Shown here piece after piece: positions 1 to 56,182 of a DNA stretch of 64,000 bases. Origin of the DNA: an uncultured Gammaproteobacteria bacterium (GTDB lineage: Bacteria; Patescibacteriota; Patescibacteriia; Magasanikbacterales; UBA922); contig CAZKAD010000003.1 in assembly GCA_964550845.1 (NCBI GenBank), positions 447 to 64,446 of the forward strand, in the 5' to 3' direction. Position 1 is the stretch's first letter, and every line of letters begins with the position of its first letter. The translations under genes and the position numbers were made by a program. The notes below the pieces were generated by a model. That model did not search any database. It was given only the letters and a program-made list of their open reading frames with translations, and was not told the DNA's origin.

Positions 1-52
1 AGTATGTCCAGATGGCTAAAGGAAAGAATTGTCCATCCAAAGAAAAATTCGA

Positions 53-1740: not shown

Positions 1741-2277
1741 ATGGGATCATCGACAAAGAAACGACAGAGTAAAAACACGGAGAGGAAGTCGAGACGAAAA
1801 CGGACTTCAGGCCGAAAAAAGAAAAGTAAGCTTCGAAGTCCTTCACATCGAAAAAGGACAAAGAGCAAGCTTCGAAGTCCTTCACATCGAAAAAGGACAA
1901 AGAGCAAGCTTCGAAGTCCTTCACATCGAAAAAGGTCTTCGTATGGAAAAGCATTTGCAATAGTTAAGTTCGAACTATTCGACGAAAGTACTCAGCTCAA
2001 ATATCCTCCACAAGGAGATGAAATTCGAAAGTGGTACGATCAATTATTTGCTAAAATATCACCAATGTACAATGATTTGAACAAGGATGTTTATCTCCTC
2101 TCGAAAAGATGGCTAAGTGATGCTGAACTGAAGCTAACTTTTGTCACATCACTGAAAGATCAATCAGAAGTTGATACATTACTTGAACTTTTAACGGATC
2201 TTGATGATGACGGAAATTATCCAATTCGGGGAATGTTAGTCATACCAAAGGTCTTATCAATTGAATATTCATTTTGA
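1741..2277 (+). CDS. Basic repeat protein (KSKLRSPSHRKRT x3 at the N-terminus) with a C-terminal globular domain; possible DNA-binding or core protein
   Basis: ORF with a 39-nt triple repeat (1830..1935) that encodes Lys/Arg/Ser-Pro motifs. The C-terminal 100 aa are non-repetitive. Confidence 0.55.
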   Translation: MGSSTKKRQSKNTERKSRRKRTSGRKKKSKLRSPSHRKRTKSKLRSPSHRKRTKSKLRSPSHRKRSSYGKAFAIVKFELFDESTQLKYPPQGDEIRKWYDQLFAKISPMYNDLNKDVYLLSKRWLSDAELKLTFVTSLKDQSEVDTLLELLTDLDDDGNYPIRGMLVIPKVLSIEYSF

Positions 2278-2310: not shown

Positions 2311-2586
2311 ATGGCGAAATCAAAATCGAGATCGCGGCGATCAAAATCGCGACGATCGAAGAGTAAATCTCGATCAAAGCGATCAAAGAAGTATTCTTGC
2401 AAACGTGTCAAGCCAAAGAAGCGAAGCAAGTCGAAGAAATCGAAGCGAGCAAAGAAATCAAAGAAGGAGAAGGTTGAATCAACTCAGTCTCATTCTTTGT
2501 TGGCTAGATTGTCACGCACGAGTGCGAGCGCTGCACCTGCAGACGCGCCAATTGAATGGAAAGCAGGAGTAAATTGGGTAAAGTAA
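2311..2586 (+). CDS. Protamine-like, highly basic SR/KS/KR-rich small protein
   Basis: 91 aa, more than 60% K/R/S (SKSRSRRSKSRRSKSKSRSKRSKK...). The context among other basic proteins supports a real gene rather than a frame artefact. Confidence 0.5.
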   Translation: MAKSKSRSRRSKSRRSKSKSRSKRSKKYSCKRVKPKKRSKSKKSKRAKKSKKEKVESTQSHSLLARLSRTSASAAPADAPIEWKAGVNWVK

Positions 2587-2659: not shown

Positions 2660-3277
2660 ATGTCTACTGAAGAACAAAAGATCGAAACGTCTACTAACGA
2701 ACAAAAGATGGAAATTGAAGGACTTGATGCTGGAGTACAAGATGATTTCATCAAATTGAATTGTCGGGATAAAGTAATCGTTTCTGTGCATAGAAGAGCC
2801 TGTAGACTGTCTTCCTTGTTTCGAGGTTTACTCGAAACTCAGCCATGTGCGCCCGAGCATGAGGTTAAACAGATCGACTCTCATATCATGAAGCTAATTG
2901 TTGAATATCTTGAACATTATCGATACGAAGAACCGAAGATTCTGGAACCTCCATTGAAGACTCCTGATCTAAAGGATCACGCCTCGGAATGGGATTGCAA
3001 GTTTGTTGCATACGACACCCCCGAACAGATGGGAACTTTTCTGACGCTGCTCAATGCGGCAAATTTCTTGGAAATTATTTCGCTGAGAAATCTTTGCTGT
3101 GCAAAGTTCGCCACATTTCTCAAAACTAAAAATGTTGATGCATTGAAGGCATTGTTTAATGTGAAAGCCACGTTGACTCCCAAAGAAGAAAACGAAATTC
3201 GAAAGAAGTACCCCGAATACTTTGCTTGGTTGAAGTCTTCGCAAGAGACAAAAACCGAGAGTAAAGTTGACGAATAG
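2660..3277 (+). CDS. Skp1 homolog (adaptor subunit of SCF ubiquitin ligases)
   Basis: Aligns with Skp1 along its length. The N-terminal BTB/POZ-like part is ...KLNCRDKVIVSVHRRACRLSSLFRGLLE... The C-terminal F-box-binding part is EWDCKFVAYDTPEQMGTFLTLLNAANFLEIISLRNLCCAKFATFLKTKNVDALKALFNVKATLTPKEENEIRKKYPEYFAW, compared with Skp1 [54 protein letters not shown]...EEEAQVRKENQW. The true start may be Met17 (2708). Confidence 0.8.
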   Translation: MSTEEQKIETSTNEQKMEIEGLDAGVQDDFIKLNCRDKVIVSVHRRACRLSSLFRGLLETQPCAPEHEVKQIDSHIMKLIVEYLEHYRYEEPKILEPPLKTPDLKDHASEWDCKFVAYDTPEQMGTFLTLLNAANFLEIISLRNLCCAKFATFLKTKNVDALKALFNVKATLTPKEENEIRKKYPEYFAWLKSSQETKTESKVDE

Positions 3278-9900: not shown

Positions 9901-10542
9901 CCATCATCTCAGATCGAAATTCATCGAGAACTTTTCACTGATGAAAAAGTCGAAATGTACAAGAAGACTGAAAATTTATTGTTTGTGAGTGATATTCGAT
10001 CGACGCCGAAACAATTCGATCCAAATCAATCCGGCTTTGATTCGAGTTTTGAACAAGAGGTGATTTTTAACATGGAGCAACAAAAGAAATGGGTGACGGA
10101 ACTTCAACCACTCAGAAGTCTACTTAAATTTCGTCTTCCTTACAATGATCCTGAAAACCCTCGAGATGAACAGGAAACATTTAAATATCTTGATGGTATT
10201 CTTTTTTTCCAAGCTTATCCTCCAGAGCAATCAGGAGAAACTCGGCTTGAAGTTGGACTTCCGTTGAAAGAGACTGGTTATTTTCTTGCCCAGTATGAAC
10301 AGCAAATGTTTTATTTTAATACTCGATATCGGATTCAATCCTTCTCTCATTATTCACAATTTTACGGATGGTCTTATGATACTCTGAGAGAATACTTTAT
10401 TCTTCAAAACTATTACAAATTTCGTGGGATTATCGACAGTGATAAGAAGATCGAATATGATTTTCAAGATCACGACCGGATGGCTCACGGCCCGGAAAAG
10501 AAGATTTTTAACATTCTTCGTAACGCGGCAAAATACGGATAA
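6928..10542 (+). CDS. Multidomain RNA cap-modifying protein: NADAR (YbiA-like) domain, dual-specificity phosphatase / Mce1-like RNA triphosphatase-like domain with the catalytic Cys replaced by Ser, an acidic coiled-coil linker, a Tgs1-like cap guanine-N2 methyltransferase and a poxvirus VP39-like cap 2'-O-methyltransferase
   Basis: NADAR: FSNFYP...SSEQYFMASKARFF...LGR...W....IMKQALLIKFQ...LIEAAPWDAIWGIGMD...LGFLLMEVRDFL, which follows the YbiA consensus. PTP-like: IYLHSRRGIGRTGL, a Cx5R P-loop in which the Cys is Ser (agt at the catalytic position). Tgs1-like: VVDVFAGIGGNTLGFARAGLRVVAYERDP...FFFDPPW. VP39-like: HSGQRKLLLSEIEFLT...GGSYTMLYVGAAPGIHI...KFILYDP, compared with vaccinia VP39 FEGQKKLL..EF / VVYIGSAPGTHI. 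No guanylyltransferase KxDG motif was seen. Confidence 0.85.
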   Translation: MAVFFAKSRDPFSNFYPVSFTVDDLKYSSSEQYFMASKARFFKDVEAEDQIMEAESPKEQRELGRSVKKFDPREWDRVKFKIMKQALLIKFQLPKMKKFLVESQRKVLIEAAPWDAIWGIGMDADKAVNTPFREWGKNGLGFLLMEVRDFLQGNWIQEDFGVSMIGNFYIGAHPTEDQAKFLLGKGVNLFVSLEENPRYLSVVGQASSKVFALPTGGIRNDQETLEFLGWLRDQYFLGKIIYLHSRRGIGRTGLIASLFLNLFLGYQPSDALDKVRKSIHSRTNFNQSFGTFKLKFMPIPETASQITQFTRLADGDKTDIDMSAYTLEAEKAWMTKLSEIEQDDLMTREDVELYQQIVSPSSSSKEVKKEDEIKRLEKSLNLPVGAIEDEQENDPLAGALAELELRKSEEKEELRKSEEKEELRKSEEKDPFEAELEAFENEGKKDPLEAELEAFENEVIEPDIKTFLEEEAKVEVKQRTSLTDRDLEEQFRRFANQELHLQAEEGTFVLQSVLNDIFNRFLEQQNIQIIDVDKFEQIAIPLIGEPEKIESKIPEYDGDKYIESKVSKLNTGYRVNFRLLPDANIRITKVKSPKRSQKKKSKSETLSEKKDVSQLSQIEPPKEEVKEVKIEKKLSSFLSHFFPGDITFIQPNINFTEETLHYMSPMSKADKLAALLKTYPRAQLVVDVFAGIGGNTLGFARAGLRVVAYERDPERFKMLRNNVLHYRFEKQVTTIRGEFNPGKDLDIIRTIQKIEADKVVFFFDPPWLPSFVQNFDKSQYILTGITLAGQLLEDIAKKTLQEYGGSIFHLPPGYSLNLAGRIVDDKSDNKARLIYFFGDQIQANIAKDYKLQINYATEFPREQSEVKYSQNELVEQLKEVEQQKVEAKLYQPPVKTVSVVFQTFLNKSFPRRSYQHEPFHPKAVHSGQRKLLLSEIEFLTRVLSKEKTLGKGGSYTMLYVGAAPGIHIPLLANKFPEVKFILYDPAKFDIAPSSQIEIHRELFTDEKVEMYKKTENLLFVSDIRSTPKQFDPNQSGFDSSFEQEVIFNMEQQKKWVTELQPLRSLLKFRLPYNDPENPRDEQETFKYLDGILFFQAYPPEQSGETRLEVGLPLKETGYFLAQYEQQMFYFNTRYRIQSFSHYSQFYGWSYDTLREYFILQNYYKFRGIIDSDKKIEYDFQDHDRMAHGPEKKIFNILRNAAKYG

Positions 10543-28670: not shown

Positions 28671-29510
28671 TCAATTTTCGAAATTAAAATAAGCTGACGA
28701 ATATATTTGTTCAATTGATGGTCTTTTATCAGGGTCTTTATTCAACATCAAAGTAATCGATTCTTTTGCTTGGTCCGAAAAATGTTTCGGAAATGAAATT
28801 TCAGCATTAATAATTTGTCTGAGAGTGTCTGGTTGTTCCTCCATTTCAAATGGAGGAAAGCCGGCTAAGCATTCATAAAGCAAAATTCCAATTTGCCAAA
28901 CATCGACCTTTTTAGTGTCATACAAATTAAGCTGATATTCTTCTCCGTCTTTCAGGTCAGAATTCTGATAAAGAATACCTTTTGCCATTTCGGGACTCAG
29001 ATAATCGAGAGTTCCTCGAAGCTTTCCATACATTAATTTTTTCGTACTATGCCCCCAATCCGCAAGCTTGTAAGTAATCCTATTCTCAAAACTTACACTA
29101 ATGATATTTTCCGGTTTAATATCGAGATGGGCAATATTTTTTTGATGTGCAGATAAGAGACCCGCAAGTACATCTCGAATTATTTGTTTGGTCAACGTTT
29201 CATCAAATCGTTCTTGTTCTACGAGTAATTTGTATAAACTACTAAAACCAAGTTCAAAACCTATACACGGACGTTCTCCATTCAAATCAAAGCCAAAATA
29301 CGCTTGAATAATATTCGGATGTCTTGGTAAGGAAAGATTAATTTTAATTTCATTCTGAATTACGCTTCTTTCATATGCATTTTCTATTTTACAATTGAAG
29401 ACTTTCAAAGCGCAATATTTTCTATCTTCTTTTCTTCGAGCCAAATAAACAGATGCATATTTGCCTGATCCAAGAGGCTTTCCAATTTCAAAATCTCGAA
29501 GCGTATTCAT
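28671..29510 (-). CDS. Serine/threonine protein kinase
   Basis: Motifs LGSGKYASVYLARRK (Gly loop), ALKVF (VAIK Lys), HLDIKPENI (catalytic loop), DWG (DFG variant), SPE and DVWQIGILLYECLAGFPPF. TCAATTTT (the reverse complement of AAAATTGA) lies 32 nt upstream at 29542..29549. Confidence 0.85.
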   Translation of the reverse strand: MNTLRDFEIGKPLGSGKYASVYLARRKEDRKYCALKVFNCKIENAYERSVIQNEIKINLSLPRHPNIIQAYFGFDLNGERPCIGFELGFSSLYKLLVEQERFDETLTKQIIRDVLAGLLSAHQKNIAHLDIKPENIISVSFENRITYKLADWGHSTKKLMYGKLRGTLDYLSPEMAKGILYQNSDLKDGEEYQLNLYDTKKVDVWQIGILLYECLAGFPPFEMEEQPDTLRQIINAEISFPKHFSDQAKESITLMLNKDPDKRPSIEQIYSSAYFNFEN

Positions 29511-35018: not shown

Positions 35019-35351
35019 TTATCTTTTTCCGAGAAGTTCGAAGATAAAACTAATCAATTCAAAGTTATCAACGTAATTTTTATGAATCGAATAGCAAATC
35101 TGATTTTGAGATGAAATAGTTAATTGCTCACCATCTTCAGAGGGAAATCGTTCAACAATCCAAAGACTGTAATTCTCATCATTCAGCAATTTTTTAATCA
35201 ACTGAATCTCCTTTTCATCTTCTGAACCGGGTATTGGACGCATTATTGTTTCAGCCATCAATAAGGAGTGCCAAAATTTTTTATCTTTGTTAGAGTATAA
35301 TGCTGATCTTTTGAATTCGTAGCGAAACTTTATAGGATCCATTTTATTCAT
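35019..35351 (-). CDS. Hypothetical small protein
   Basis: 110-aa ORF whose start overlaps the stop of the upstream gene (ATGA-type 4-nt overlap at 35348..35351). Confidence 0.5.
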   Translation of the reverse strand: MNKMDPIKFRYEFKRSALYSNKDKKFWHSLLMAETIMRPIPGSEDEKEIQLIKKLLNDENYSLWIVERFPSEDGEQLTISSQNQICYSIHKNYVDNFELISFIFELLGKR

Positions 35352-37354
35352 TTTTCTCCAAGTTGAAATCTTTTTCTTGACAATGATTCAGTCAAGTCTT
35401 CAATTTTTTCCGCTGGCTGATACATTTGAATTGAGCCAAATTTCTCCATCACTTCTTCGAGAGGGGCTGATGCTTGAGTTTTCCTTCCTCGTCGAACTCC
35501 GTTCAGATCAAGGGGATTGATAAACATTCGATGGAGAGGAATGTTTCTTTGAATTTGACATCCTTTGTATTCCTCTTGAGGGAAATACAGCTTACCTTCG
35601 GGGGTATAAGCTTCATTAGTAATTGCAGGAATAATTACGGGTCCTCGTTCAGTAATCGCTGGAGCAATAACGAAGTGCCGGAATTTTTCTCGCTCATACT
35701 TGAATGCCAACATCGATTGGACAAAATCTTCATAAAGCACCAAAATATCAACATCAAAATGCAATAAAATCAAAGGAGTATTTTTATCGACATTTAGGTC
35801 GTCATTGGAGAGGCATGGGAAATGAACCGTAAAAGTTTGGGTCGATTTTCTTCCGGGTGAAGAAGTTTCGATTAATCCAAAAATAAACCTCCTTAATCGA
35901 GAGAGTGTACTTCTCCGAATATAACCATTTTGAGCTTCATCGAGAACATTTTGACAATAACGAACAACCCCATAGAAATATCTACGAATCTTATCACTCG
36001 GTGCTAAAATCTTAAACCAATTGATTGGATCAACTTTCTCATATCGAGCTCTCAATTCTCGAGTTCCTCGATCTGCTTCTTCGATATAAGGCGCGACTAA
36101 TCCGCGAACATGTTCGTCAAGATTACCAGTTAATTGAACCGGAATTTGTTTATTTCTTTGAACTCGAAGAATCTTATTAATTTCTCCTGCAAGATCTTCA
36201 ACCATTGCAATTGCATTCTTTCCATCGGGAAAGACGTTCAAAAATCTGGTGTACAATCTTTCTCCAAATTCACTTAGATAACCCATCATTTGTTCAAATG
36301 AATAGCAATAAACCGAATTTCCAAATGAAATGATTAAGTTCGAATTCTTTTTCAAATGTTGATCTACATCAATCTCTGCATTTCCCATCTCAGTTATTTG
36401 TAGACACTTGTCAGGTAATGATTCTTCTTGATTCAGAAAATTAACTGGAGCTCGTTCGTTACTTGAACTGGTGTAATAAACCTTACCATCAGCAATCAAA
36501 TAAGTTACACCTGATTTGTAATCATGGAAAAATTGAGGCATCTCGTCTTCTCCTCGGGCAAGGAAATTCCAATGATTTCGAAATCCGATTGCAACTGTTG
36601 GTCCGTAGCTTGCCGTACCTCCATTTTTCTTTGATTTTTCAGGCCAAGGCAAATTGTTGTTTAAAATGTAAGAGAGTGGATAATCAGCGTTCTTCAAATG
36701 GATCAATGTTGTCCAATTAAATTTAAATCCGCGATCCTGATACTTATGAATTCGTTTGAGTGTTCGAAGCCATTCAAAAGGAGATTGAGTTTCAATTGCC
36801 TTCATTCCGATTGAAGTTTCTTTCTCTGGTAAATAAGTCAGATCAAACATAGTGAAAAATTTTTGTCCATCAAAAAATACTTTACAAACATCGATGTCAA
36901 AATTATTGATTGCGCTCAAAATTGGGTAGGTACTTTCTTTCTCATCTTCATCGGTGTAAAGAACAATAATTTGCACACGAGGAAATTTAGCCTTTTGAAT
37001 ATGATGAAGAAAATGAATATGTTTAACCGTACTTCCAAATCGTAGATAATCTTCGCTTAAACTCTCGGTTCCAAGTTGGCTTGGTAGTTCATAGTCAAGT
37101 TGAAGAAAGTAACTGATTAAATTTTTAACTCCTCTTTGATTTGAGGTCCAAATGTCAACATCTGAATCTGACCATACAACATTCATGATCATTTGAAGAG
37201 GGAAACTTCCGGCGACAACTGCTTGGGACGATCGAAGCACATTTCCAAAGTCTGGGAAGATATTGAATAAATCTTGAACGTTTTTATGGAGCACAACTTT
37301 GTCAATTCGGAGTTGTCCACTTGAAAGTGGTTTGACCTTTTCTTTCAGATCCAT
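35348..37354 (-). CDS. Large protein with a pol-beta-type nucleotidyltransferase-fold motif; tandem paralog of 37391..39592
   Basis: AGSFPLQMIMNVVWSDSDVDIW fits hG[GS]-x(9-13)-DhDh. A third acidic site is FDIDVCKVF. The two copies share FEWLRTLKRIHKYQDRGFKF / YEWFRTLRRVEKYMSRGFSF. Confidence 0.7.
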   Translation of the reverse strand: MDLKEKVKPLSSGQLRIDKVVLHKNVQDLFNIFPDFGNVLRSSQAVVAGSFPLQMIMNVVWSDSDVDIWTSNQRGVKNLISYFLQLDYELPSQLGTESLSEDYLRFGSTVKHIHFLHHIQKAKFPRVQIIVLYTDEDEKESTYPILSAINNFDIDVCKVFFDGQKFFTMFDLTYLPEKETSIGMKAIETQSPFEWLRTLKRIHKYQDRGFKFNWTTLIHLKNADYPLSYILNNNLPWPEKSKKNGGTASYGPTVAIGFRNHWNFLARGEDEMPQFFHDYKSGVTYLIADGKVYYTSSSNERAPVNFLNQEESLPDKCLQITEMGNAEIDVDQHLKKNSNLIISFGNSVYCYSFEQMMGYLSEFGERLYTRFLNVFPDGKNAIAMVEDLAGEINKILRVQRNKQIPVQLTGNLDEHVRGLVAPYIEEADRGTRELRARYEKVDPINWFKILAPSDKIRRYFYGVVRYCQNVLDEAQNGYIRRSTLSRLRRFIFGLIETSSPGRKSTQTFTVHFPCLSNDDLNVDKNTPLILLHFDVDILVLYEDFVQSMLAFKYEREKFRHFVIAPAITERGPVIIPAITNEAYTPEGKLYFPQEEYKGCQIQRNIPLHRMFINPLDLNGVRRGRKTQASAPLEEVMEKFGSIQMYQPAEKIEDLTESLSRKRFQLGEK

Positions 37355-37390: not shown

Positions 37391-39592
37391 TTATTCTTTT
37401 CTTCCATTCCCAGATGAATACCGAAGAATTTCTTCTTCATTGATTGGCTCTTCTTCCGGTTCAAGTCCCGAAGGGACGGATTCAAGTCCCGAAGGGACGG
37501 ATTCAACCGTTTGTTGAATTGGTGGAGGAGGTGATAATTGTTCAATCACTAGAGGAGATCTCCGAATTCCTTTGAGTCGTTCGGCATCTTCGGGTTGAAT
37601 ATTCTTTTTGTCAACAACAGTGTAACTCTTTCCATCAGGTCGATAAATGTGCTGTTCCTTTCGATAGAGTTGATAAACAAGTTTCTCCGATCCAGCTTGA
37701 CAGTGATCGGCCGAAATGTACAATTCGCTTTGTTTTTGTTCATCGTTGACTAAACCATAATTAATTGTGTAATCGAGACGTTTGTGATATCCTCGTTCAT
37801 CTTTCATTGGCTTGAGGACAAAATGTCTCGCTCCAAAAAAGAAGGAGTCAATTGCCATCGTAACCTGTTTAAGTGGAATCAGGAAGTTTCCAGTGAGTCG
37901 AAGAAGAAAATATCCATCTTCAAGAGGGGGATTTTTTGGACTTTTATCTTTACCTGAACAACCAAAGAAAATATTCGAATTTCTTTCACTCGTTTTCCCT
38001 GTGATGTAATATTGATTCTTAATCAGATTAAAAATGCCGTAAACATTGCCTATCATCACTTCGGAATTGTTTGACGCGTCGTCGTTCAAATCCGACAAAC
38101 TATTTGCAATATAGTTCAAGTCTGGATAGTGCCTCAATACACGATTAAAGTTGACATGTTTACTCACTTCTTCTTCAAACTTTTCAAACTGCTCGACCCA
38201 ATTCTTAATGAGTTTATTGAGAAAAGGGAGGATTGAACGATTGCACTGAAATTCTTCCAGATTCCAATTGCAAGAATTTTTGTAAAGAAATCTCAAAGCA
38301 TCGCGATAAGACATCACAGTTGAGCAAAATGGAGTCATAAATTCTTGAGCTTTTGCCAAAAGAGCAATTTTAGGGGAAGATTCAATTCCTTCTGAAGAAT
38401 TTACTTGGAATTGTCTAAGCTCGGGAAATTCAAATCCAAACTCGTTCGGGTCAAACGAAAAAAGTTTGAGAAAATGTTCAATTGAGAAGCAATAAATTTG
38501 ATCTCCAACTTGAATAGTCGCTTTGAAAGTATCTTCAATTTGATCGAATTTTGTCTCATCAAACATAATATAATCGAAGCATTTTGTCGGAAGATCTTCT
38601 TCAATCAATTCGATCGCCTTTCCGAAATCTTTCTTTATTAATTCGATTGAATAGATTACTTCACCATGAATATAGAAATGAAGATGATTGAGTGTCAAGA
38701 CAAGATGGGGAATTTCACCAATTTTTGAAATTTGATCGGCAAGTGAATTCCATTTATTGACATAAGCGTCGACAAAATTTGTACCATATTCATGTGGATA
38801 ATAAGGATATGGCTCTTCTGGTTTTGGATAAACTTTGGCGTACTTTCGAATAAAATTGTACATCGGAGATTCATGAAGAGCATAGTCGAGTCCGGACCAG
38901 TCGAATGAAAATCCTCTTGACATATACTTTTCAACACGACGAAGCGTTCGGAACCATTCATATGGAGACTGTTCAAAAATGGCATTTGAATTGAGTGATG
39001 TTTTACGTTGTTTCAAGTTGGTATTTTCAAATGAAGTGATCAGTTTCTCTCCATCTGTAAACACACAACAAGCGTCAATGTCAAACGATTCGACGAGATC
39101 TTTTAAAGCAACGTTTGCATGAGTTAAAATTGCTTGAACATCAGGTTTCCTTCTATTTGTATCTTGGTAAACGTAGATTGTTCTCACCCATCTCTTCAAT
39201 CTTGAATATGTGTCAGATTCAGTCAAGACAGTTCCATGCTTTACAGGAAGATTATATCCCTGTGCAAGGAGATAAGAAGAGAGTTTTCGAAGTTTATCTT
39301 TATCAGCAATCCAAATATCTACATCCGAATCGCCCCATTTTTCTCCAATTAAATGTTGAAGGGGGAAACTACCTGCAATAATCATTTCATTTTGAGAGAG
39401 AAGATCTTGGAGTCCTGGAAATTGATTGTCAAACCAATTCTGTAGTGAATCTGGCAATCGATGAATCGAAACTTTTCTCTGAACATCAGAAGCTTCACTG
39501 ACTGATTTCAATAAGAAGGGGAATTTATTTTCTGCGATCCCTTCGTTATCGAGCTGCGATGAAGTCGCGCCCATGTTGTCTTTTCCATTCAT
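37391..39592 (-). CDS. Large protein with a pol-beta-type nucleotidyltransferase-fold motif; tandem paralog of 35348..37354
   Basis: AGSFPLQHLIGEKWGDSDVDIW and FDIDACCVF. The C-terminus has a duplicated SVPSGLE repeat (the DNA repeat ccgaagggacggattcaagtc x2 at about 37460..37505). Confidence 0.7.
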   Translation of the reverse strand: MNGKDNMGATSSQLDNEGIAENKFPFLLKSVSEASDVQRKVSIHRLPDSLQNWFDNQFPGLQDLLSQNEMIIAGSFPLQHLIGEKWGDSDVDIWIADKDKLRKLSSYLLAQGYNLPVKHGTVLTESDTYSRLKRWVRTIYVYQDTNRRKPDVQAILTHANVALKDLVESFDIDACCVFTDGEKLITSFENTNLKQRKTSLNSNAIFEQSPYEWFRTLRRVEKYMSRGFSFDWSGLDYALHESPMYNFIRKYAKVYPKPEEPYPYYPHEYGTNFVDAYVNKWNSLADQISKIGEIPHLVLTLNHLHFYIHGEVIYSIELIKKDFGKAIELIEEDLPTKCFDYIMFDETKFDQIEDTFKATIQVGDQIYCFSIEHFLKLFSFDPNEFGFEFPELRQFQVNSSEGIESSPKIALLAKAQEFMTPFCSTVMSYRDALRFLYKNSCNWNLEEFQCNRSILPFLNKLIKNWVEQFEKFEEEVSKHVNFNRVLRHYPDLNYIANSLSDLNDDASNNSEVMIGNVYGIFNLIKNQYYITGKTSERNSNIFFGCSGKDKSPKNPPLEDGYFLLRLTGNFLIPLKQVTMAIDSFFFGARHFVLKPMKDERGYHKRLDYTINYGLVNDEQKQSELYISADHCQAGSEKLVYQLYRKEQHIYRPDGKSYTVVDKKNIQPEDAERLKGIRRSPLVIEQLSPPPPIQQTVESVPSGLESVPSGLEPEEEPINEEEILRYSSGNGRKE

Positions 39593-40874: not shown

Positions 40875-40966
40875 CTTTTCCCTTTGGGGAAAAGATAGAC
40901 CCACTTTTGACCAGTCCTCGGGACGTTTAATTAGTTCAAAAAAAATCTTGAAGGGACGTTCAATTT
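40875..40966. terminator. Hairpin CTTTTCCCtttGGGGAAAAG plus two copies of the conserved palindromic element (CCAGTCCtcGGGACGTTTAA; GAAGGGACGTTCAA) between convergent genes
   Basis: Direct reading. Located between the stops of 39972..40847 (+) and 40965..42179 (-). Confidence 0.6.
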
Positions 40967-42179
40967 ATTCTGCTTCAAAAAAGCTTTCAATATCATTGTA
41001 AATACGATTAATCAAGGATTCATCGGCAACTTTCTCTTGAATAGCTTTATTAAGATTTTGTTTGAATTCTGGCAAACGCGATTTGTCAACTTTGCTAACC
41101 GCACTAATCATTTCGGGTATTTCCTCTTGCTTTATCTTAGGATCTAGAATAGACACAATTGTTAAAGCCAATGCAAAATGATCTGCTTTCACAGAAGGTG
41201 GAATGTGATAATTCAATGCATCTAACAATCCAGATGTTTTATCGACATTTCGACATTGAAGCAACGAAGAACTCTCTTTTGTAAAACAACTCTTTCCGAG
41301 ATCTGACAGCGTGGCAACCGGTTTTCCATTTTTCTCGAAGACGAGAATGTTCTTTGGTGCAATTCTTCCATGAACAATACCGTACATATGGAGTACTTCA
41401 AGTTGGTTGTATATTTGGTCGTAAATATCTTCCACCCATTTTGATTTCAATTCTGAAGGCAGTTCAAACAACGGAATTCCAGGATTCCATTTGTAGACCA
41501 GATAGATTATGTTCGGACTAACCTTAAAATCAAGTAACGGAATAAATTCGTTTTCAAATTGAGAGCCGAGTTGGTTCGAAATTTCCCTTAACATTTCAAG
41601 TTCGTGAAGAGGGATAAACTTTCCCATTCCTCCCACAGTGTTTTTCATTGATTTAATGAAAACCTTTTCTTTAGTTGTATCGTCCTGGCCTTCGTATGCA
41701 ATTGATTCTCCATTTGATGAGATTTGCCTTCCAATTGAAAAAGATTTGTTAGAATCGGTAACAAATCCGATTCGACTTCGAGAAATTTCTCCAATACTTT
41801 TTGGAAGTTGAGGTGAAAATTCGGCGATTAATCTTTTCGAGTTACGAAGAGAAGGGAACTTTTCTCGTGATTTTGAACGGAGCTTTTCAGCGAGTAAGTA
41901 ATCTGCATTTTCGGGTAAGATCCGAATTGGCGACGTTCTTTTTGGATGATCATTCAATTTTCTCTTTCCACTATAAGTTTTGATTGATGCTTTTCTCTTC
42001 GAGGAACTCTTCCTTTTCTTCGGACTTGGACTCTTCCTTTTCTTTGGACTCTTCCTTTTCTTTGGGCTTCGAGAAGATTTACGACTTTGTCGCTTTGATC
42101 GGGAAGATTTACGATTTCGTCTCTTTGATCGGGAAGATTTACGACTTTGTCGCTTTGATCGAGATTTTGATTTGGGCAT
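40965..42179 (-). CDS. Protein-kinase-like domain (probable pseudokinase) fused to an N-terminal SPKK/RS-rich basic tail
   Basis: N-terminus MPKSKSRSKRQSRKSSRSKRRNRKSSRSKRQSRKSSRSPKKRKSPKKRKSPSPKKRKSS. Kinase-like core: VFIKSMK, IVHGRIAPKNILVF (where canonical HRDLKPENIL has its catalytic Asp replaced) and LSDLGKS (DLG). Confidence 0.65.
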   Translation of the reverse strand: MPKSKSRSKRQSRKSSRSKRRNRKSSRSKRQSRKSSRSPKKRKSPKKRKSPSPKKRKSSSKRKASIKTYSGKRKLNDHPKRTSPIRILPENADYLLAEKLRSKSREKFPSLRNSKRLIAEFSPQLPKSIGEISRSRIGFVTDSNKSFSIGRQISSNGESIAYEGQDDTTKEKVFIKSMKNTVGGMGKFIPLHELEMLREISNQLGSQFENEFIPLLDFKVSPNIIYLVYKWNPGIPLFELPSELKSKWVEDIYDQIYNQLEVLHMYGIVHGRIAPKNILVFEKNGKPVATLSDLGKSCFTKESSSLLQCRNVDKTSGLLDALNYHIPPSVKADHFALALTIVSILDPKIKQEEIPEMISAVSKVDKSRLPEFKQNLNKAIQEKVADESLINRIYNDIESFFEAE

Positions 42180-42205: not shown

Positions 42206-43198
42206 TTAATCAAATATTTTTCGAGAAATTTCAACCAATTCGGCATCATGTTGAATCATTTTGCTCAATTCTTCTCGAAAAGATACTTTTTGCGCAGCCT
42301 TGACCGGAAGATATTGAACAAACTTTTGCTTATAAGCAATTCGAATCCCTTGTTCAAGAAGTTGATGGTATAAAATACCTTGTTTAAAGGTCTTAAACTC
42401 TTCTTCATGTCCGGAAAGAATCAATTTGAATTTTAAATTTTGTTCTGGTTTGAGTAATTGAATTACATTATGATCAAGAGGTAAACTGGCATGAATAGTT
42501 TTCTTCCTTGGAGGATAAATGTTAACTGGAATTATTTCTTTAGTCTCAAGTCGATATTCAGTGAGTAGACAATCTTGAGTCTCTCCAAATGAAACTTGCA
42601 TTGAAGAACCAGTATAATGCAAATTGGGAAAAGGTGTTTGACGGTCGTGAATATGACCAGAGATCATCAAAGGATACTTTTCATCCCAATCTTCAACATT
42701 TTCTGCGACAATAGCACCCATTTTCACTTTATTAAATAATTGATGTCCAAAGAAAAGATCAAAATTTTCAATCTTTTCACCAGAGACTTCAACTGCTTCT
42801 CGAAATCTCCCATCTGGCAGATATGGCATCATGCATATGTTATATTTTTTGTCTTGATGGAAAAGTTCAACTTTAGTTAGACGATCTACAATTTGATGAT
42901 CTTTCTTCCATGTTAAATAAGGATGGAGATCTGAGAGAAATTGCGCATTGTTTACATACTCATGATTGCCAACTAGAACATAAGTCGAAGAGTATTTTTC
43001 GCAAAGTTGTACATATTCGAGCATCTTATTCAGACAGAGAGTATGTAAAGTTTCATGTGTATGAAGAGTGTCACCGAGGATAATAATCAATTGATATTTT
43101 GATTGACTCAAATGTTTCTCAAGTTGTGTAAGAAAGACATTAATTTCTGCAAGATTACTCGGTTGAATATGAAGATCTCCAAGAGCCAAAATACTCAT
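42206..43198 (-). CDS. Calcineurin-like metallophosphoesterase
   Basis: Motifs ALGDLH, ILGDTLH, GNHEY and SGHIHD. Start set at the internal Met (MSILALGDLH), which removes the overlap with 43227..43496. Confidence 0.7.
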   Translation of the reverse strand: MSILALGDLHIQPSNLAEINVFLTQLEKHLSQSKYQLIIILGDTLHTHETLHTLCLNKMLEYVQLCEKYSSTYVLVGNHEYVNNAQFLSDLHPYLTWKKDHQIVDRLTKVELFHQDKKYNICMMPYLPDGRFREAVEVSGEKIENFDLFFGHQLFNKVKMGAIVAENVEDWDEKYPLMISGHIHDRQTPFPNLHYTGSSMQVSFGETQDCLLTEYRLETKEIIPVNIYPPRKKTIHASLPLDHNVIQLLKPEQNLKFKLILSGHEEEFKTFKQGILYHQLLEQGIRIAYKQKFVQYLPVKAAQKVSFREELSKMIQHDAELVEISRKIFD

Positions 43199-43226
43199 TT
43201 TATTTCTCAATTGAGAAACAAAACGT

Positions 43227-43496
43227 TCAATTTTTACGAAACGAATTGTACCATTCGCGAAAGACATCTCGGACTTCGGTGTCACTAAGTTTTGCTAACT
43301 CCTCTTTTGAGATGTATTTGAGAAATACCTTCCGGAGATCTTCTTCGGATAAATATTCAAATCCGACAGTTCGATCACGCTTTTTTAATCTTTGATATCT
43401 TTGTTCAATCGCAAACAAGGCTTCTGTTTTTGTATTGAATGGAAGCGTGATTTCAGACAAAATTTCTGGACTTCCTTCATCCTCAAATGATGCCAT
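43227..43496 (-). CDS. Hypothetical small protein
   Basis: 89-aa ORF with ordinary composition. Confidence 0.45.
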   Translation of the reverse strand: MASFEDEGSPEILSEITLPFNTKTEALFAIEQRYQRLKKRDRTVGFEYLSEEDLRKVFLKYISKEELAKLSDTEVRDVFREWYNSFRKN

Positions 43497-43517: not shown

Positions 43518-43880
43518 TTACAATGGATGAATATAAACTTTTGAATCTGGGGAAAGTTTCGGAATTGCTTGAATCAATTGAACAGTTCCCTTTGAATTGG
43601 CGAGAGGAAAACAGAAAATAAATTCAGGTTTCTCAGATAACATTTGGTTGTTCCTTCGTGGACCAGCTGATGCTCCATATTTACTCCATTCAGGAAAATA
43701 GCGTTTAATCTCCCATTTATGTTCGACTGCAAATTCCTCTGCAAATGTATCAGCTCCTCGACATCCTCCTGAGAGGAGAGTTTTCGAGACATTCGGATGT
43801 TGTCGATCAAATTCGAGAAGAACATCCCAAATTACTTTCTTGTCTGCCCATTCACGAGAGCCGGAAACACAAATTTTCAT
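43518..43880 (-). CDS. DUF2493 / SLOG (YspA-related) domain protein
   Basis: ICVSGSREWAD...LLSGGCRGADTFAEEFA...PEWSKYGASAGPRRNNQM fits the DUF2493 pattern (GSR.W...GGa.GAD..Ae.wA...W..Gk.AGp.RN..M). Confidence 0.55.
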   Translation of the reverse strand: MKICVSGSREWADKKVIWDVLLEFDRQHPNVSKTLLSGGCRGADTFAEEFAVEHKWEIKRYFPEWSKYGASAGPRRNNQMLSEKPEFIFCFPLANSKGTVQLIQAIPKLSPDSKVYIHPL

Positions 43881-44032: not shown

Positions 44033-44881
44033 TTAGTTTGAAGCACTCGCAACAGTCTCGACAACAGCGGGAGCTGCAACCGAAGCACTTGCCGCTGGAT
44101 CGGCAGGGGCACTCGAAGCAGGGGCACTCGAAGCACTCGCGGCGGCAGCAACACTGGCAGGAGTAGCCTCAAACACGTTCGCCAAAGCCTGTTGGAGATT
44201 GCAATAGGTCAGACGATCACCAGCGGATCGTCGCAACAAAACGGCCAAGGTTTGATCAAGAGTGAAAAACTTCTTTTCCTTTTGGTCCTTGAGACCATTC
44301 TCCTTGATGTACTTACAGAGGAGTTGAGAAATCTCAATACGAGACATCTTATCTCCATGAGGACGCTTGGCGAAGTCAGCCATTGCGTCAGTGACCAATT
44401 GCAACTTTCGGAAACCTCCATTGGGGTTAGAAGTAGGTCGTCGAGTCTTCTTTCGAGAGCTGGTCAACAATCGAGTGGTATCACTTTGAATCTTCTTGAC
44501 ACGAGAACCAATTTGACGCAATAGACGAGATCCAGTAGGAACCGTCGACTTCGGTTGTTGCTCCTTTCGCTCGGCAATTGCCTTCAATTCATCATCAACC
44601 AACTTGAGCACCTCAGCAAAAGCAGCACCCAAAGTGGCCTCAGTAATTTCACGTCTCTGACGAGTCTTCTTCTCCGGAACAGCAGGAGTGGCGGGGACGG
44701 GAACATAAGTAGGGACACCATTAACAATTTGAACTACATAGGTTTGTTGAGGGGGGACGGGAGCAGGAGCCGCAGCTACAGGAGCAGCCATCACAGGGAC
44801 CGCAGCAACGGGAGCGGCCACGGCAACGGGAGCAGGAGTCATAGCAACTTGAGCAGACATTTGAAGTTTTGAGTTTTGCAA
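44033..44881 (-). CDS. SWIB/MDM2-domain protein with an Ala/Pro/Val-rich N-terminus and an Ala/Ser-rich C-terminus
   Basis: MSRIEISQLLCKYIKENGLKDQKEKKFFTLDQTLAVLL, compared with the SWIB consensus SRTEVVKKLWEYIKENNLQDPKNKRKIICDEKL. TCAATTTT lies 47 nt upstream, at 44928..44935. Confidence 0.7.
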   Translation of the reverse strand: MQNSKLQMSAQVAMTPAPVAVAAPVAAVPVMAAPVAAAPAPVPPQQTYVVQIVNGVPTYVPVPATPAVPEKKTRQRREITEATLGAAFAEVLKLVDDELKAIAERKEQQPKSTVPTGSRLLRQIGSRVKKIQSDTTRLLTSSRKKTRRPTSNPNGGFRKLQLVTDAMADFAKRPHGDKMSRIEISQLLCKYIKENGLKDQKEKKFFTLDQTLAVLLRRSAGDRLTYCNLQQALANVFEATPASVAAAASASSAPASSAPADPAASASVAAPAVVETVASASN

Positions 44882-46584: not shown

Positions 46585-47886
46585 TTATTCTTTTGGTAGA
46601 GAAAGATCGAAGTTTGGAAAAGATGCTCGAAAATCAAGCACTTTTGCACCAACACTCATTGCATATTTTCTTCGTGAAAGATAATGCTTTTCAAGATTGG
46701 GTAAATTGTCTACCAAGTCGACAATAATAGGAGAAACATCTTCTCTACGGACACATCTTCCAAAATATTGTGCAAACATTTCTTCGACATCAGAAGCAAG
46801 GATTAACATATCCAATTTTGGATGATCAAAACCAACTCCACTCTTCGAGAAAGTAGTGACCAGAATTCTTGCATCACGATTGAAATCTGATTTCGATCCA
46901 GTCGTATAATCAACGCTCTCTTTACAGTGCAATAAATTGTAATACAAAGTTTCTGTTTGTTTAACTCTTTTACAAAGAACTAAGATATTTCTGTCTTTAA
47001 ACAGGCGACATAACTGAATGATCCAAATATTTCTCTGATTATGATCGGCTTGAAAAGCTAGCACTGAATTCCAATCAGTTCTTCCTTGCATATTCATTTT
47101 CTTTGGAGGAATCAGTCTTGTTTCGAGTTTGTAGTAGATACATTCAACTTGAAGAGGTACAATAATTCGATCTTCACTAAAATGAAGATCAAGAATTTTA
47201 TCCATTTCGTCACTTCGATCTGGTGTTGCAGTCAAACCAATACAAATTTTAGGGCAAAAATAAAAGAGAGCTCGACTCATCTTTTCGGAACAAATCGCAT
47301 GTGCTTCATCAACAATCAGACAACCAATATTAGCAAATTCTGCTCTGTTTCTTTTCATTACATTAATTGGATTCATTAAGACAAAGTCCGCTGATGGATC
47401 AATTAGCGACTTACTATCAAGCAGCTGAACTTTTGCTTTCGGAAGAACCTTTTCAATAGTTTCCTTCCATTGATCAAATAAACTAATACGATGCATTAAT
47501 ACCATGGTTTGATATCCAAACAAAGAAGCGAGATAAATTGAAGTCAATGTTTTTCCTTTTCCTGTAGCCATAGATAAGAAAGCTGTTCTCACTTTCAACA
47601 ATCGTTCAATTGCTTGTTTAGCAACTTTTTCCTGATATTCTCGAAGTTTTCCTTCAAACGGTAAAGATTTTTGTGTAAACGGAAAAGCTTCATTTGGATA
47701 TTGTTTCAAATATTGACAGCCGAAATAAAAAGGAAGATAGACATTTTCACCATCAATTTCATATGCGTTCACTACAACGCCTTCAGTTTGAATAAATGGA
47801 TTATCTTTACTTCTTACTTCAAGTTGTTGAGTTAAAGTTTCACGCTGTTGCTGTGTAAGTTTTTGAAGAGGAACAGCAATTGACAT
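46585..47886 (-). CDS. SF2 helicase (DEAH box; NCLDV D6/A18-like, XPB-type)
   Basis: Motif I ATGKGKT, motif II LIVDEAH, motif III GLTATPDR and motif VI QYFGRCVRR. Confidence 0.8.
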   Translation of the reverse strand: MSIAVPLQKLTQQQRETLTQQLEVRSKDNPFIQTEGVVVNAYEIDGENVYLPFYFGCQYLKQYPNEAFPFTQKSLPFEGKLREYQEKVAKQAIERLLKVRTAFLSMATGKGKTLTSIYLASLFGYQTMVLMHRISLFDQWKETIEKVLPKAKVQLLDSKSLIDPSADFVLMNPINVMKRNRAEFANIGCLIVDEAHAICSEKMSRALFYFCPKICIGLTATPDRSDEMDKILDLHFSEDRIIVPLQVECIYYKLETRLIPPKKMNMQGRTDWNSVLAFQADHNQRNIWIIQLCRLFKDRNILVLCKRVKQTETLYYNLLHCKESVDYTTGSKSDFNRDARILVTTFSKSGVGFDHPKLDMLILASDVEEMFAQYFGRCVRREDVSPIIVDLVDNLPNLEKHYLSRRKYAMSVGAKVLDFRASFPNFDLSLPKE

Positions 47887-54376: not shown

Positions 54377-56182
54377 ATGCCTCTTCGCAAACTGGCTTTC
54401 TATGTGAATCAACTTGTTTCGACCTCTCTAAATGATTTCTTCTTGAATTGTCTCAAGGAAATTCAAGAACAGACAAAATCTAATTCGGCGAATCTTCGGG
54501 TCTTTAACGGTCCGACAATTCAAACCTCAACAGATTCAATTGAAACAAATATTCATTCGGAGAAAGCAATCATTACGCGATCTATTTATTTTGACGAAAA
54601 AGAATCATGGATACCCTTATTATCTGGAGATAAAGTCTGTGGTCTAATTGGCTTACTCAGTCCAAAAGAGCGTCCAAATCAGTTTGTTGAACAACTAATC
54701 AACTTAATTGTTGCTCGAATTCTATCGATCAAGAAAGAATTACCAAATGATTCTTTTATCTCGAACATGAGTCATGAATTGAGAAATCCTTTGAACGGGT
54801 TACTGGGATATCTTCAAATTCTTGAATCATCGGGGTTAAATTCTGCTCAACAAGGATATCTCTACTCGGCACAAAAATGCGGTTTGAGTTTAATTCGAGT
54901 CGTCAACGATATCTTAGATTACTCAAAACTAATGTCAGGTAAAATGAAGTTAAACGTACAAATTACCAATTTGTATGATTTACTTGGTTTTGTCGAAGAA
55001 ACTCTCCATATTTCAATCCAAGAAAAAGGACACACTTTTACCCTCTTTTTTCATCCAGATGTCCCAAAGATGATTTTAACCGATTCTCAAAAATTAGCTC
55101 AGATTTGTATTAATCTGCTAAGTAATGCAATTAAATTCACACCGGCGAAAGGAAAAATTAACTTTGAAGTAAATCTGATGATCAAAGAAAAAGAATATCT
55201 TATCTTTAAGATTGCCGATACTGGTTGTGGCATTTCAAAAATTCAATCGGATGAATTGTTTCGAACTTTTACTCGACTTCATCATTCAAGAGAAGAGGGA
55301 ACAGGGCTTGGATTAGTTATTTCGAAAAAACTAACCGAATTGCTCTCAGGAACTATTCGTCTTGAAAAATCTTCATCTGAAGGTTCGGAATTTGTTTTTG
55401 AAATTCCACTTCAGAGAGCTCAAGAAGTTCGAAGTTCTCAACTTGGATTTAAGAAAGAAGTTTGTTTATTTGTTTCAGAGAAAGTTCAAACAGAATTAAA
55501 TCCACTGCTATTACGATGGGGAATGAAAGTATTTAATGTTCAATCTTTTTCAGAACTTTTAACAATCTTGAGCAGTTATGTATATGATTTTGAACTTGTC
55601 ATTCTTGAAGATGGAGAAAAAGAATTTGAACAAAATTCGAATAAGATTTGGGAAATTTGTCCAAAAATTCCAATTATACATGCCTGTAAAATCTTACCTC
55701 AAAAGAAGAGTGACTCATATTTTCATCTGCTTAATTTTACTCCAACAGAATTGTACAATTGTATTGCAAGGGCCTTGGAAAATTCTCTCTATTTGAAAAA
55801 GAAAAATTCGATTCGACTTGATCTGAAGAAAAAGATTTTGATTGCTGAAGATGATCCAAGTGGAAGGGAAATTTTGTCTAGATTACTCCAATCAATTGGT
55901 TTCTCGGAAATTGATTGTGCCGAAGATGGTCTTCAAGCCTTGAATATGATTCAAAAGAAAAGTTATTCTTACTTATTCATTGATTTGAAAATGCCGGTTA
56001 TTGACGGGTATGAAGTAATTACCACAATAAATAAGAAACCAAATAAGACAATGAAATTAATTTGTGTTTCAGCATCTGTTACAGATGAAGATAAACAATT
56101 TTGTCAAAAAGCATCTGTTCCATTTCTTGCAAAACCGGTTCAATTTCGAAATCTACAAGACTTGATGGTTTCATTGAGTTAG
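54377..56182 (+). CDS. Hybrid sensor histidine kinase: N-terminal sensor region, HisKA, HATPase_c, a degenerate middle domain and a C-terminal receiver (REC) domain; soluble
   Basis: H-box MSHELRNPLNGLLGYLQIL. N box LLSNAIKFT. G1 DTGCGI. G2 GTGLGLVISKKL. Receiver: ILIAEDDPSGREIL...LFIDLKMPVIDGYEV...LAKP. No TM helices were seen. Confidence 0.85.
   Translation: MPLRKLAFYVNQLVSTSLNDFFLNCLKEIQEQTKSNSANLRVFNGPTIQTSTDSIETNIHSEKAIITRSIYFDEKESWIPLLSGDKVCGLIGLLSPKERPNQFVEQLINLIVARILSIKKELPNDSFISNMSHELRNPLNGLLGYLQILESSGLNSAQQGYLYSAQKCGLSLIRVVNDILDYSKLMSGKMKLNVQITNLYDLLGFVEETLHISIQEKGHTFTLFFHPDVPKMILTDSQKLAQICINLLSNAIKFTPAKGKINFEVNLMIKEKEYLIFKIADTGCGISKIQSDELFRTFTRLHHSREEGTGLGLVISKKLTELLSGTIRLEKSSSEGSEFVFEIPLQRAQEVRSSQLGFKKEVCLFVSEKVQTELNPLLLRWGMKVFNVQSFSELLTILSSYVYDFELVILEDGEKEFEQNSNKIWEICPKIPIIHACKILPQKKSDSYFHLLNFTPTELYNCIARALENSLYLKKKNSIRLDLKKKILIAEDDPSGREILSRLLQSIGFSEIDCAEDGLQALNMIQKKSYSYLFIDLKMPVIDGYEVITTINKKPNKTMKLICVSASVTDEDKQFCQKASVPFLAKPVQFRNLQDLMVSLS

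Follow-up and report, generated by a model that had tools for sequence, protein, structure and literature searches.

Results

Within a 64,000-nt stretch of DNA (positions 447 to 64,446 of contig CAZKAD010000003.1, assembly GCA_964550845.1; hereafter the window), the open reading frame (ORF) at 40965..42179 encodes a kinase-like protein of 404 amino acids (aa), in which a protein-kinase fold without its catalytic Asp is joined to a polycationic, Ser-rich N-terminal tail. We give a probability of about one half to the reading that this protein is a lineage-specific, non-catalytic kinase-fold module of a Mimiviridae-like virus, tethered to nucleic acid by a protamine-like tail that can be tuned by phosphorylation. 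The window comes from a giant virus of the Mimiviridae type; its virus-type content includes collagen-like genes, a P9-type minor capsid protein, DUF5767, DUF5832, DUF2738, PolX and a SWIB domain. The protein, called the target below, consists of three parts: a 64-aa tail, a 71-aa linker and a 269-aa kinase-like domain. An earlier note on the same DNA, which had described a pseudokinase with a DNA-binding type of tail, had placed the ORF exactly; it lies on the minus strand (Table 1).

Kinase fold of the C-terminal domain

The earlier note had assigned a kinase fold to the C-terminal 300 aa. The fold is borne out by Pfam, by the Protein Data Bank (PDB), by AlphaFold2 (AF2) and by Foldseek, and the size has to be reduced to about 269 aa, which follow the conserved 71-aa linker. 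The match to Pfam PF00069 has an E-value of 1.1e-9 (38.5 bits versus a cut-off of 31.7) and covers only positions 12-161 of the 263 in the profile. A family profile without the tail, compared with the PDB, found SNRK, ULK1, TTK, DCLK1, CaMK1D and DYRK2 with E-values down to 5e-6, the alignment running motif by motif from the glycine loop through helix F. In both the sequence and the profile alignments with PDB entries, GIVHGRIAPKNIL falls on GIVHRDLKPENLL and SDLG falls on SDFG. With 53 distantly related kinases in the input alignment, AF2 returned a model with a mean predicted local distance difference test score (pLDDT) of 77.8 (core >90) and a predicted template modelling score of 0.72, showing the full series of kinase secondary-structure elements through alphaI. 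The 50 best Foldseek matches of this model are all kinases, the best in the PDB being DAPK1, ULK2 and WNK3 at about 1e-11, and giant-virus kinases in BFVD are found at about 1e-11 as well. The domain therefore belongs to the protein kinase superfamily (PF00069 fold), and its nearest relatives are of the CAMK type (SNRK, ULK, DAPK), not of the CMGC/SRPK/CLK type. The Pfam scan at E<=10 gave no match to the F10 family (Pox_ser-thr_kin; PF05445, which we take to be the accession of the poxvirus F10 family), so the target does not fall under the F10 profile.

Catalytic and nucleotide-binding residues

For residue scoring, the family was aligned with the 53, and then with the 146, nearest generic kinase domains, and the residues were counted column by column. 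The Asp of the HRD motif, present in 135 of 146 generic kinases, is replaced by Arg272, which is invariant in the family and has a counterpart in only two of the 146 nearest domains. The catalytic-loop Lys (129/146) is Ala274, and a Lys (Lys276) occupies the variable position at which 50 of the 146 generic kinases have Glu. The earlier note had recognized the loss of both the Asp and the Lys; HRD has become HGR and the Lys has become Ala in every homologue down to about 45% identity. It had also rightly called the glycine loop atypical, since GxGxxG reads S-S-N-G-E-S, with an invariant Asn at the second glycine (Gly in 94 of the 109 aligned generic kinases).

Three further positions, not mentioned in the earlier note, are degenerate. 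First, the Ala of VAIK is Phe (VFIK); generic kinases have Ala in 94 and Phe in 3 of 110 cases. Second, APE is IPP or LPP, its Glu (45/53) being replaced by Pro328 in the target. Third, the alphaC Glu, found in 51 of 53 generic kinases, exists in the window strain only (Glu193) and is Gln in all other members of the family; in an alternative register of alphaC, Glu199 stands opposite a Tyr in the distant members. Other canonical residues are retained: the beta3 Lys (Lys176), the catalytic-loop Asn277 (Asn in 144/146), the metal-binding Asp293 of DFG, which reads DLG or DIG in the family with the Asp invariant (113/121), and Asp333 of subdomain IX (50/53). Compared with a competent kinase, the target thus has the beta3 Lys and the DFG Asp and lacks the HRD Asp and GxGxxG. 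No homologue down to about 45% identity departs from the motifs HGRIAPKN, VFIK and NGESIAYEG; at that level 131 columns are invariant, the substituted motifs among them.

By the usual sequence definition, a pseudokinase is a protein with a kinase fold that lacks at least one of VAIK-Lys, HRD-Asp and DFG-Asp (PMC4718504). Because the HRD Asp is absent, the target is a pseudokinase in this sense, as the earlier note had supposed, and the kinase-profile alignment suggested there found neither intact HRD/VAIK/DFG residues nor the absence of a kinase fold.

The activation segment (41295..41240 on the minus strand, residues 296-309) contains two family-invariant cysteines, Cys298 and Cys309, together with invariant Lys296, Ser297, Glu302 and Ser303. 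This segment may be a disulfide site, a metal site or a regulatory element.

The N-terminal tail and the linker

The tail consists of 30% Lys, 23% Arg (53% together), 31% Ser and 8% Pro and has no Asp or Glu at all, which gives it a net charge of +34 and an isoelectric point (pI) of 12. It ranks second for net charge per 40-aa segment when set against the 119 ORFs of the window that start with ATG and have 60 aa or more. It is encoded by a 30-bp tandem repeat followed by an 18-bp tandem repeat. The earlier note had described the N-terminus as SPKK/RS repeats and had read SPKK as the minor-groove-binding motif of histones. A basic repeat tail with three SPKK motifs is indeed present in the window strain; SPKK, however, is not a feature of the family. 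The three motifs arose there by a recent 18-bp duplication, no SPKK unit occurs in the homologues P0002, P0154, P0155 and P0003, and contig L001 has one S-P-x-K. The tails of the homologues are instead of the RS/KS-rich or the STSRRR-repeat type. Since SPKK is restricted to the window strain, the minor-groove reading describes no family property, and the repeated units that characterize the SPKK tails of H1 and sperm H2B are not a conserved feature here.

What is kept between lineages is the composition. All tails lack acidic residues, contain 47-57% K+R and are about one third Ser (17-39%, the lowest value coming from a partial tail), with net charges of +24 to +38 across 47-81 aa. The sequences and repeat units themselves are unrelated between lineages and cannot be aligned. 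The tails of P0155, P0002 and P0154 are 47, 57 and 67 aa long and differ by whole 10-aa repeat units. RS/SR dipeptides number 10 in the 64-aa tail and up to 18 in those of homologues. As judged from the sequences, the conserved property of the tail is polycationic and potentially phosphorylatable disorder, that is, a basic, Ser-rich composition with variation in repeat copy number. An RS domain as in SR proteins and CLK N-termini, with Arg far exceeding Lys, is not what is seen (K 30%, R 23%); a polycationic, Ser-rich, tandemly repeated basic segment of the protamine-like or P64-like kind is.

The frame of the distant lineage extends upstream, across at least 3-4 STSRRR copies, as far as the contig end, and P0004 and P0001 are therefore N-terminally truncated entries. 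Here the tail repeat evidently breaks the assemblies. In the annotation of L001 (1..240) and L009 (1..230), a spurious 78-aa ORF is placed in the wrong frame and the kinase-like gene is started at an internal TTG.

Comparable basic tails, also N-terminal, are found on two other proteins of the window, of 178 and 91 aa (Table 1), neither of which has a match in a Pfam scan. Close-strain homologues of the 178-aa protein retain its tail with 2 or 3 repeat copies, and a homologue at 59% identity carries a different basic, Ser-rich tail (RSPSQRRK...). Since similar tails are present on at least two other proteins of the virus, the tail appears to be a reusable module. These data suggest that, in a Mimiviridae-like lineage of which few samples exist, protamine-like, Ser-rich tails are in use on several proteins, a dead kinase among them, as grafted modules. 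A 556-aa protein at 29..1699 (+), with a long charged repeat of the RD/RE/RH type (DRHRDSRDKDRD...) followed by DUF5767, brings a low-complexity region of alternating charge next to the two basic-tail proteins.

The linker is conserved. The AF2 model places its predicted helices at residues 94-107 and 109-119, and its invariant motif HPKRTSPIR contains S-P-x-R, a consensus of proline-directed kinases.

Table 1. Positions of the target, of its parts and of related genes in the window
Feature	Position	Strand	Basis or remark
Complete ORF, 404-aa kinase-like protein	40965..42179	-	Stop codon included; homologues P0001-P0004
Polycationic Ser-rich N-terminal tail, residues 1-64	41988..42179	-	Composition; AF2 pLDDT 31-37, predicted disordered
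30-bp tandem repeat, 3.1 copies	42069..42161	-	Encodes 10-aa unit SRKSSRSKR(Q/R)
18-bp tandem repeat, 2.2 copies	42026..42065	-	Encodes SPKKRK; source of the three SPKK motifs
Conserved linker / N-terminal extension, residues 65-135	41775..41987	-	pI 10.6; two predicted helices
Invariant motif HPKRTSPIR, residues 78-86	41922..41948	-	Nine consecutive invariant columns
Protein-kinase-like domain, residues 136-404	40968..41774	-	Acidic, pI 5.5; Pfam, PDB profile search, AF2, Foldseek
Degenerate glycine loop ISSNGESIAYEG	41688..41723	-	GxGxxG replaced by S-S-N-G-E-S
Beta3 motif VFIK, Lys176 retained, adenine-pocket Ala replaced by Phe	41652..41663	-	
Catalytic loop HGRIAPKN	41349..41372	-	HRD Asp replaced by Arg272, Lys by Ala274, Glu by Lys276; Asn277 retained
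DLG (DFG equivalent), metal-binding Asp293 retained	41295..41303	-	
IPP replacing APE, Glu replaced by Pro328	41196..41204	-	
SbcD/Mre11-type metallophosphoesterase, upstream neighbour	42206..43198	-	Synteny conserved; AAAATTGA 29 nt upstream of start
Aurora-like Ser/Thr kinase, active-looking	28671..29510	-	HLD, DWG and SPE motifs; AAAATTGA early motif at -32
178-aa protein, 67-aa basic K/R/S tail (KLRSPSHRKRTKS x3) on a different, unrelated globular domain	1741..2277	+	
91-aa protamine-like protein, begins MAKSKSRSRRSKS... (target begins MPKSKSRSKRQS...)	2311..2586	+	

Family, gene order and selection

Searching 5.8 billion proteins with a word index gave four clusters of homologues, at 98, 77, 43 and 44% identity. 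When 1.84 billion representatives were compared exhaustively with the family profile, only two 50%-identity family clusters emerged (E about 1e-180), followed by a gap, the generic kinases beginning at E 1e-15 and weaker; a word-indexed profile search yielded one further generic kinase only. IMG/VR contained no relatives when scanned with the profile of the kinase-like family. The Mre11-like neighbour, used as a single sequence and as a profile, and the DUF5832 neighbour recovered from it only an unrelated phage SbcCD locus. A scan of JGI metagenome contigs recovered only the already known lineage of a 38-kb contig. As far as these searches reach, the target belongs to an orphan family.

The gene order is conserved in three independent contigs. 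It begins with the SbcD/Mre11-like phosphoesterase, the kinase-like gene and, on the opposite strand, a Cys/His-rich protein of about 290 aa, and continues with an 82-aa protein, two paralogues of about 700 aa, DUF5832 and DHHA1.

In a comparison with contig L006, the kinase-like gene is 78-79% identical, its three downstream neighbours are 72-85% identical and the flanking genes are 95-99% identical. By the Nei-Gojobori method, synonymous divergence (dS) is 0.72 in the kinase-like gene and 0.56-0.60 in the flanks, whereas nonsynonymous divergence (dN) in the kinase-like gene exceeds that of the flanks by a factor of five to six; dN/dS is 0.17, versus 0.04 in the flanking genes. Because dS is similar and dN is raised, the kinase-like gene is under purifying selection and markedly less constrained than the adjacent enzymes. 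Given its conservation and this dN/dS, the target is a genuine gene under selection rather than a chance ORF.

A recombined island was considered as the reason for the fast evolution of the kinase-like gene and rejected, since its dS resembles that of the flanks and dN alone is higher. The segment 37391..42179 comprises four adjacent genes (733 aa, 82 aa, the 291-aa Cys/His-rich protein and the kinase-like protein) that are 72-85% identical to those of L006. All four have raised dN, dS being raised as well in the 733-aa (1.23) and 291-aa (0.93) genes, and the segment looks like a fast-evolving island. The two tandem paralogues of about 700 aa, at 35348..37354 (-) and 37391..39592 (-), share an N-terminal region, and one of them evolves very fast; their only Pfam matches are faint ones to Gad2 (PF26128), in homologous contigs.

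Discussion

A proposed tethered, non-catalytic kinase fold

The fold of the domain appears bilobal and complete, and the machinery of phosphotransfer appears dismantled: the catalytic base and the catalytic-loop Lys are missing, the glycine loop is degenerate, Pro takes the place of the APE Glu, the alphaC Glu is not conserved and the adenine-pocket Ala is replaced by a bulky Phe. For this reason the domain is most likely a non-catalytic binding module, which may be a scaffold, or may act on another protein as its decoy or allosteric partner. Its basic cleft (Lys176, Arg272, Lys276, Lys296) might still hold a nucleotide or a phosphate group. The substitution in the adenine pocket has parallels. 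BRAF A481F, which has the same change of the VAIK Ala to Phe, serves as a kinase-defective form (PMC10322840), and the purine pocket of the pseudokinases VRK3, BIR2 and ROR2 is occluded by bulky hydrophobic side chains (PMC4718504).

The tail, a protamine-like polycation, would tether the protein electrostatically to nucleic acid, most plausibly to the viral genome in the virus factory or in the virion core. Its Ser residues lie in basophilic contexts ([RK][RK]xS) and, in the window strain, also in SPxK contexts. With so many Ser residues in such contexts, the charge of the tail, and hence its affinity for nucleic acid, could be switched by phosphorylation. One candidate for the kinase that modifies the tail is the Aurora-like kinase of the virus itself, which has an early promoter. 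The earlier note had listed it as a genuine Ser/Thr kinase, and it is indeed complete (Pkinase E=9e-45), with Aurora kinases as the closest relatives (E=6e-42). The same note had gone on to propose that both kinase-like proteins form a phospho-regulatory system for basic proteins. This is a reasonable hypothesis, yet its sole basis is that both genes occur in one genome. They lie 11.5 kb from each other and, with similarity at the level of motifs only (E=0.02), are not paralogues, and the metallophosphoesterase next to the target is a nuclease of the SbcD/Mre11 type. That neighbour was also considered as the protein phosphatase of a phospho-switch and was rejected on account of its match to SbcD/Mre11 nucleases. 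The link between the Aurora-like kinase, as the candidate tail kinase, and the target is thus an inferred one.

Several points weigh against this picture. First, sequence alone does not allow nucleotide binding or residual activity to be predicted (PMC4718504), and in the target the beta3 Lys, the catalytic-loop Asn and the DFG Asp are all retained. Second, the Lys of the HGK motif in human MLKL, which stands at the position of the HRD Asp, contributes to ATP binding (PMC4718504), so Arg272 could likewise help to bind ATP. Third, VFIK occurs together with an intact HRD in one generic kinase, P0080, and the Phe in VFIK therefore need not abolish ATP binding. Fourth, AF2 produced a poor model (pLDDT 44) from the five family sequences alone; the kinase model is not independent, since its input alignment held generic kinases. 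Fifth, the Aurora-like kinase is tied to the target by the shared genome alone. Sixth, the KKRK-type stretches of the tail would also fit a nuclear or nucleolar localisation signal. Finally, packaging into the virion is a guess, since the target lacks the early motif AAAATTGA and no late motif can be assigned to it.

A bolder extension would be a modular mode of genome packaging and regulation, in which interchangeable protamine-like K/R/S tails are grafted onto several unrelated globular proteins and the DNA-tethered pseudokinase, by docking or allostery, brings the Aurora-like kinase to these tails. We regard this as rather improbable. If true, the virus would encode a phosphorylation-switched chromatin distinct from the histone solution of the Marseilleviridae.

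Alternative explanations

Arg/Lys-rich stretches often function as nuclear or nucleolar localisation signals. The tail might be such a signal, and the pseudokinase would then sequester or redirect a host kinase or another signalling partner in the host nucleus, in the manner of vaccinia B12 with VRK1 and BAF. The three KKRK stretches of the window strain fit the pattern of a classical monopartite signal, B12 is a viral pseudokinase with a mainly nuclear location (PMC6395007, PMC9175622), and the target evolves about four times faster than the neighbouring enzymes, as is frequent in genes of host interaction. However, a charge of +24 to +38 over 47-81 aa greatly exceeds what a localisation signal needs, and KKRK-type motifs are missing from the homologues. 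The 91-aa protein, which is scarcely more than a tail, resembles a protamine rather than a cargo, and the tight, conserved linkage of the target to an SbcD/Mre11-type DNA nuclease suggests transactions of viral DNA. A nuclear role of this kind is unlikely, though not negligibly so.

The target could also be an atypical enzyme that is still active, Lys176, Asn277 and Asp293 binding Mg-ATP and catalysis proceeding without the canonical Asp. Phosphotransfer or AMPylation would then depend on a relocated Arg272, Lys276 or glycine-loop Glu158, and the Ser residues of the tail would be substrates in cis. The three nucleotide- or metal-binding residues are invariant, and so are the replacements Arg272, Lys276 and Glu158, which is unusual for mere decay; relocated catalysis or ATP binding is known from the supposed pseudokinases WNK, CASK and MLKL, the last with its HGK Lys (PMC4718504). 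Against this, six canonical positions have changed together, the catalytic base and the catalytic-loop Lys among them, the alphaC Glu is Gln in all other members of the family, and the VAIK Ala-to-Phe change is the one used to obtain kinase-defective BRAF (PMC10322840). On balance, an active enzyme seems doubtful. We know of no active protein kinase with Arg at the position of the HRD Asp.

The earlier note had compared the tail to SRPK docking, a comparison that the analysis does not support. The more general form of this idea, in which an SR/SPKK tail is a docking or substrate element of the SRPK/CLK type following the RS-domain logic of splicing kinases, appears very improbable. N-terminal RS domains are present on CLK and CDK12/13 kinases, and the tail has 10 RS/SR dipeptides in 64 aa, or up to 18 in homologues; yet Lys is at least as frequent in it as Arg, SPKK is not conserved, the nearest relatives of the domain are CAMK-type rather than SRPK- or CLK-like, and without a catalytic base the domain could not itself work like CLK. 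A decaying kinase gene, or a chance ORF lengthened by a low-complexity repeat, would suit the tiny family and the faster evolution relative to the neighbours and is effectively refuted by a dN/dS of 0.17 at a dS of 0.72, by a frame that is intact in every lineage, by a conserved position, and by the 131 invariant columns at about 45% identity.

Comparison with known systems

The non-catalytic, tail-tethered kinase fold that we favour can be set against several known systems. Like the CAMK-group kinases SNRK, ULK1/2, DAPK1, CaMK1D and DCLK1, the target has a bilobal fold with the same order of motifs, and the beta3 Lys, the His and Asn of the catalytic loop, the DFG Asp and the subdomain IX Asp are aligned. 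Identity to these kinases is only 15-20%, no regulatory domains are held in common, and the target replaces the catalytic Asp, the catalytic-loop Lys, glycines 1 and 2, the APE Glu and the VAIK Ala.

The catalytic loops of JAK JH2 and VRK3 read HGN. In both of these and in MLKL (HGK; PMC4718504), as in the target, the HRD Arg has become Gly, the Asp has become a non-acidic residue and the beta3 Lys is retained. No specific sequence relationship to these three HG(N/K) pseudokinases is detectable, however, and none of them has a polycationic tail.

Vaccinia virus provides another case of a large DNA virus with a pseudokinase, B12, encoded beside an active viral kinase, B1 (PMC6395007, PMC9175622). 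The B1/B12 pair acts on the DNA-binding protein BAF, which by analogy may be likened to an action on DNA-binding proteins here. B12 is a recent paralogue of B1 and VRK without a basic tail, whereas the target is unrelated to the Aurora-like kinase beyond the fold; it is thus not a VRK/CK1-related paralogue of the virus's own active kinase, as B12 is.

The closest parallels to the tail are found in P64 of ascoviruses and P6.9 of baculoviruses. P64 carries tandem Arg/Ser-rich repeats on a globular domain and condenses the viral DNA, and it is phosphorylated when nascent and unphosphorylated in the virion; P6.9 is released from DNA by a capsid-associated kinase (PMC6163548). Tandemly repeated, Arg/Ser-rich basic motifs are common to these proteins and the target, and in P64, too, they are joined to a globular domain and evolve rapidly in number and sequence (PMC6163548). 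The P64 unit SPSQRRSTS..RR is resembled by the STSRRR tail of the sister lineage and by RSPSQRRK in the homologue of the 178-aa protein. Unlike the target, P64 has its basic domain at the C-terminus, in a larger version (14 repeats) attached to vs2C-ad motifs. There is no homology between the target and P64 or P6.9, and DNA condensation, demonstrated for P64, is conjectural for the target. The authors of the P64 study found no such proteins in other Megavirales (PMC6163548).

With the tails of histone H1 and sperm H2B, the target shares three SPKK(R)K units in the window strain; these are absent from its homologues, and it has no histone fold. Vaccinia F10 retains the catalytic Asp, unlike the target. 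As divergent kinase-like proteins of giant viruses, F10L and Mimivirus R400, the core kinase of nucleocytoplasmic large DNA viruses (PMC1215527), are nonetheless comparable to it. The distance of about 4.4 kb between the target gene and a ResIII/DEAD helicase (46585..47886) is loosely reminiscent of Mimivirus, where R400 and L396 (A18 helicase) have close gene numbers.

Pseudokinases, including those of viruses, and protamine-like viral proteins have all been reported before. As far as our literature search found, the fusion of a pseudokinase to a polycationic tail has not been described, and neither has an orphan family whose invariant signature is HGR/VFIK, from a lineage in which several proteins bear such grafted tails. 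Only for a few lineages of giant viruses, to our knowledge, is it understood how a genome of hundreds of kilobases is neutralised, condensed and later released. Viral pseudokinases are likewise few (vaccinia B12 and the poxviral MLKL mimics), and we know of none that is tethered to nucleic acid. The lineage of the target is known from metagenomes alone, and its function has to be inferred. Should the domain recruit a kinase to DNA-bound basic proteins, or regulate one there, both pseudokinase scaffolding and phospho-switched condensation of a genome would have a compact model in it. For kinase structural biology, an invariant Arg in place of the catalytic Asp, combined with a natural change of the VAIK Ala to Phe, would be of interest as a natural version of the engineered 'ATP-independent closed' kinase.

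Neighbouring genes and promoters

The octamer AAAATTGA, an early promoter motif of mimiviruses (PMC5294985), is located 25-60 nt upstream of about 15 genes of the window. In the 70 nt before start codons, a second motif, GTTAAACG ([AG]GTTAAAC[GA]T), shows an enrichment of about 10-fold. It precedes about nine genes, among them those at 1741, 32645, 52815, 54377, 56406, 57812 and 59282, and may represent a further class of promoter or else a signal for the 3' end of the gene before it. In this promoter analysis, neither AAAATTGA nor GTTAAACG was found upstream of the target. The stop codon of the phosphoesterase precedes the target ATG by 26 nt. The ORF listed for this gene, 42206..43285, begins at a GTG (43285); from the position of AAAATTGA (43227..43234) and from the 330-aa length of the homologues, the true start is the ATG at 43198.

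Eukaryote-like regulatory modules lie close to the basic-tail genes: a Skp1-like protein (2660..3277, +), a SLOG-family (YAcAr) protein (43518..43880, -) and a SWIB/MDM2-domain protein (44033..44881, -). The window also encodes a NADAR-phosphatase-methyltransferase-cap-2'-O-methyltransferase fusion of 1204 aa (6928..10542, +), which joins NADAR and a dual-specificity-phosphatase-like region to two methyltransferase parts, one of the cap guanine-N2 type and one of the poxvirus VP39 type (cap 2'-O-methyltransferase / poly(A) polymerase regulatory subunit). Finally, a 601-aa hybrid histidine kinase (54377..56182, +) is composed of HisKA, HATPase_c and a response-regulator receiver, a two-component protein of bacterial type that is out of the ordinary for such a giant virus.

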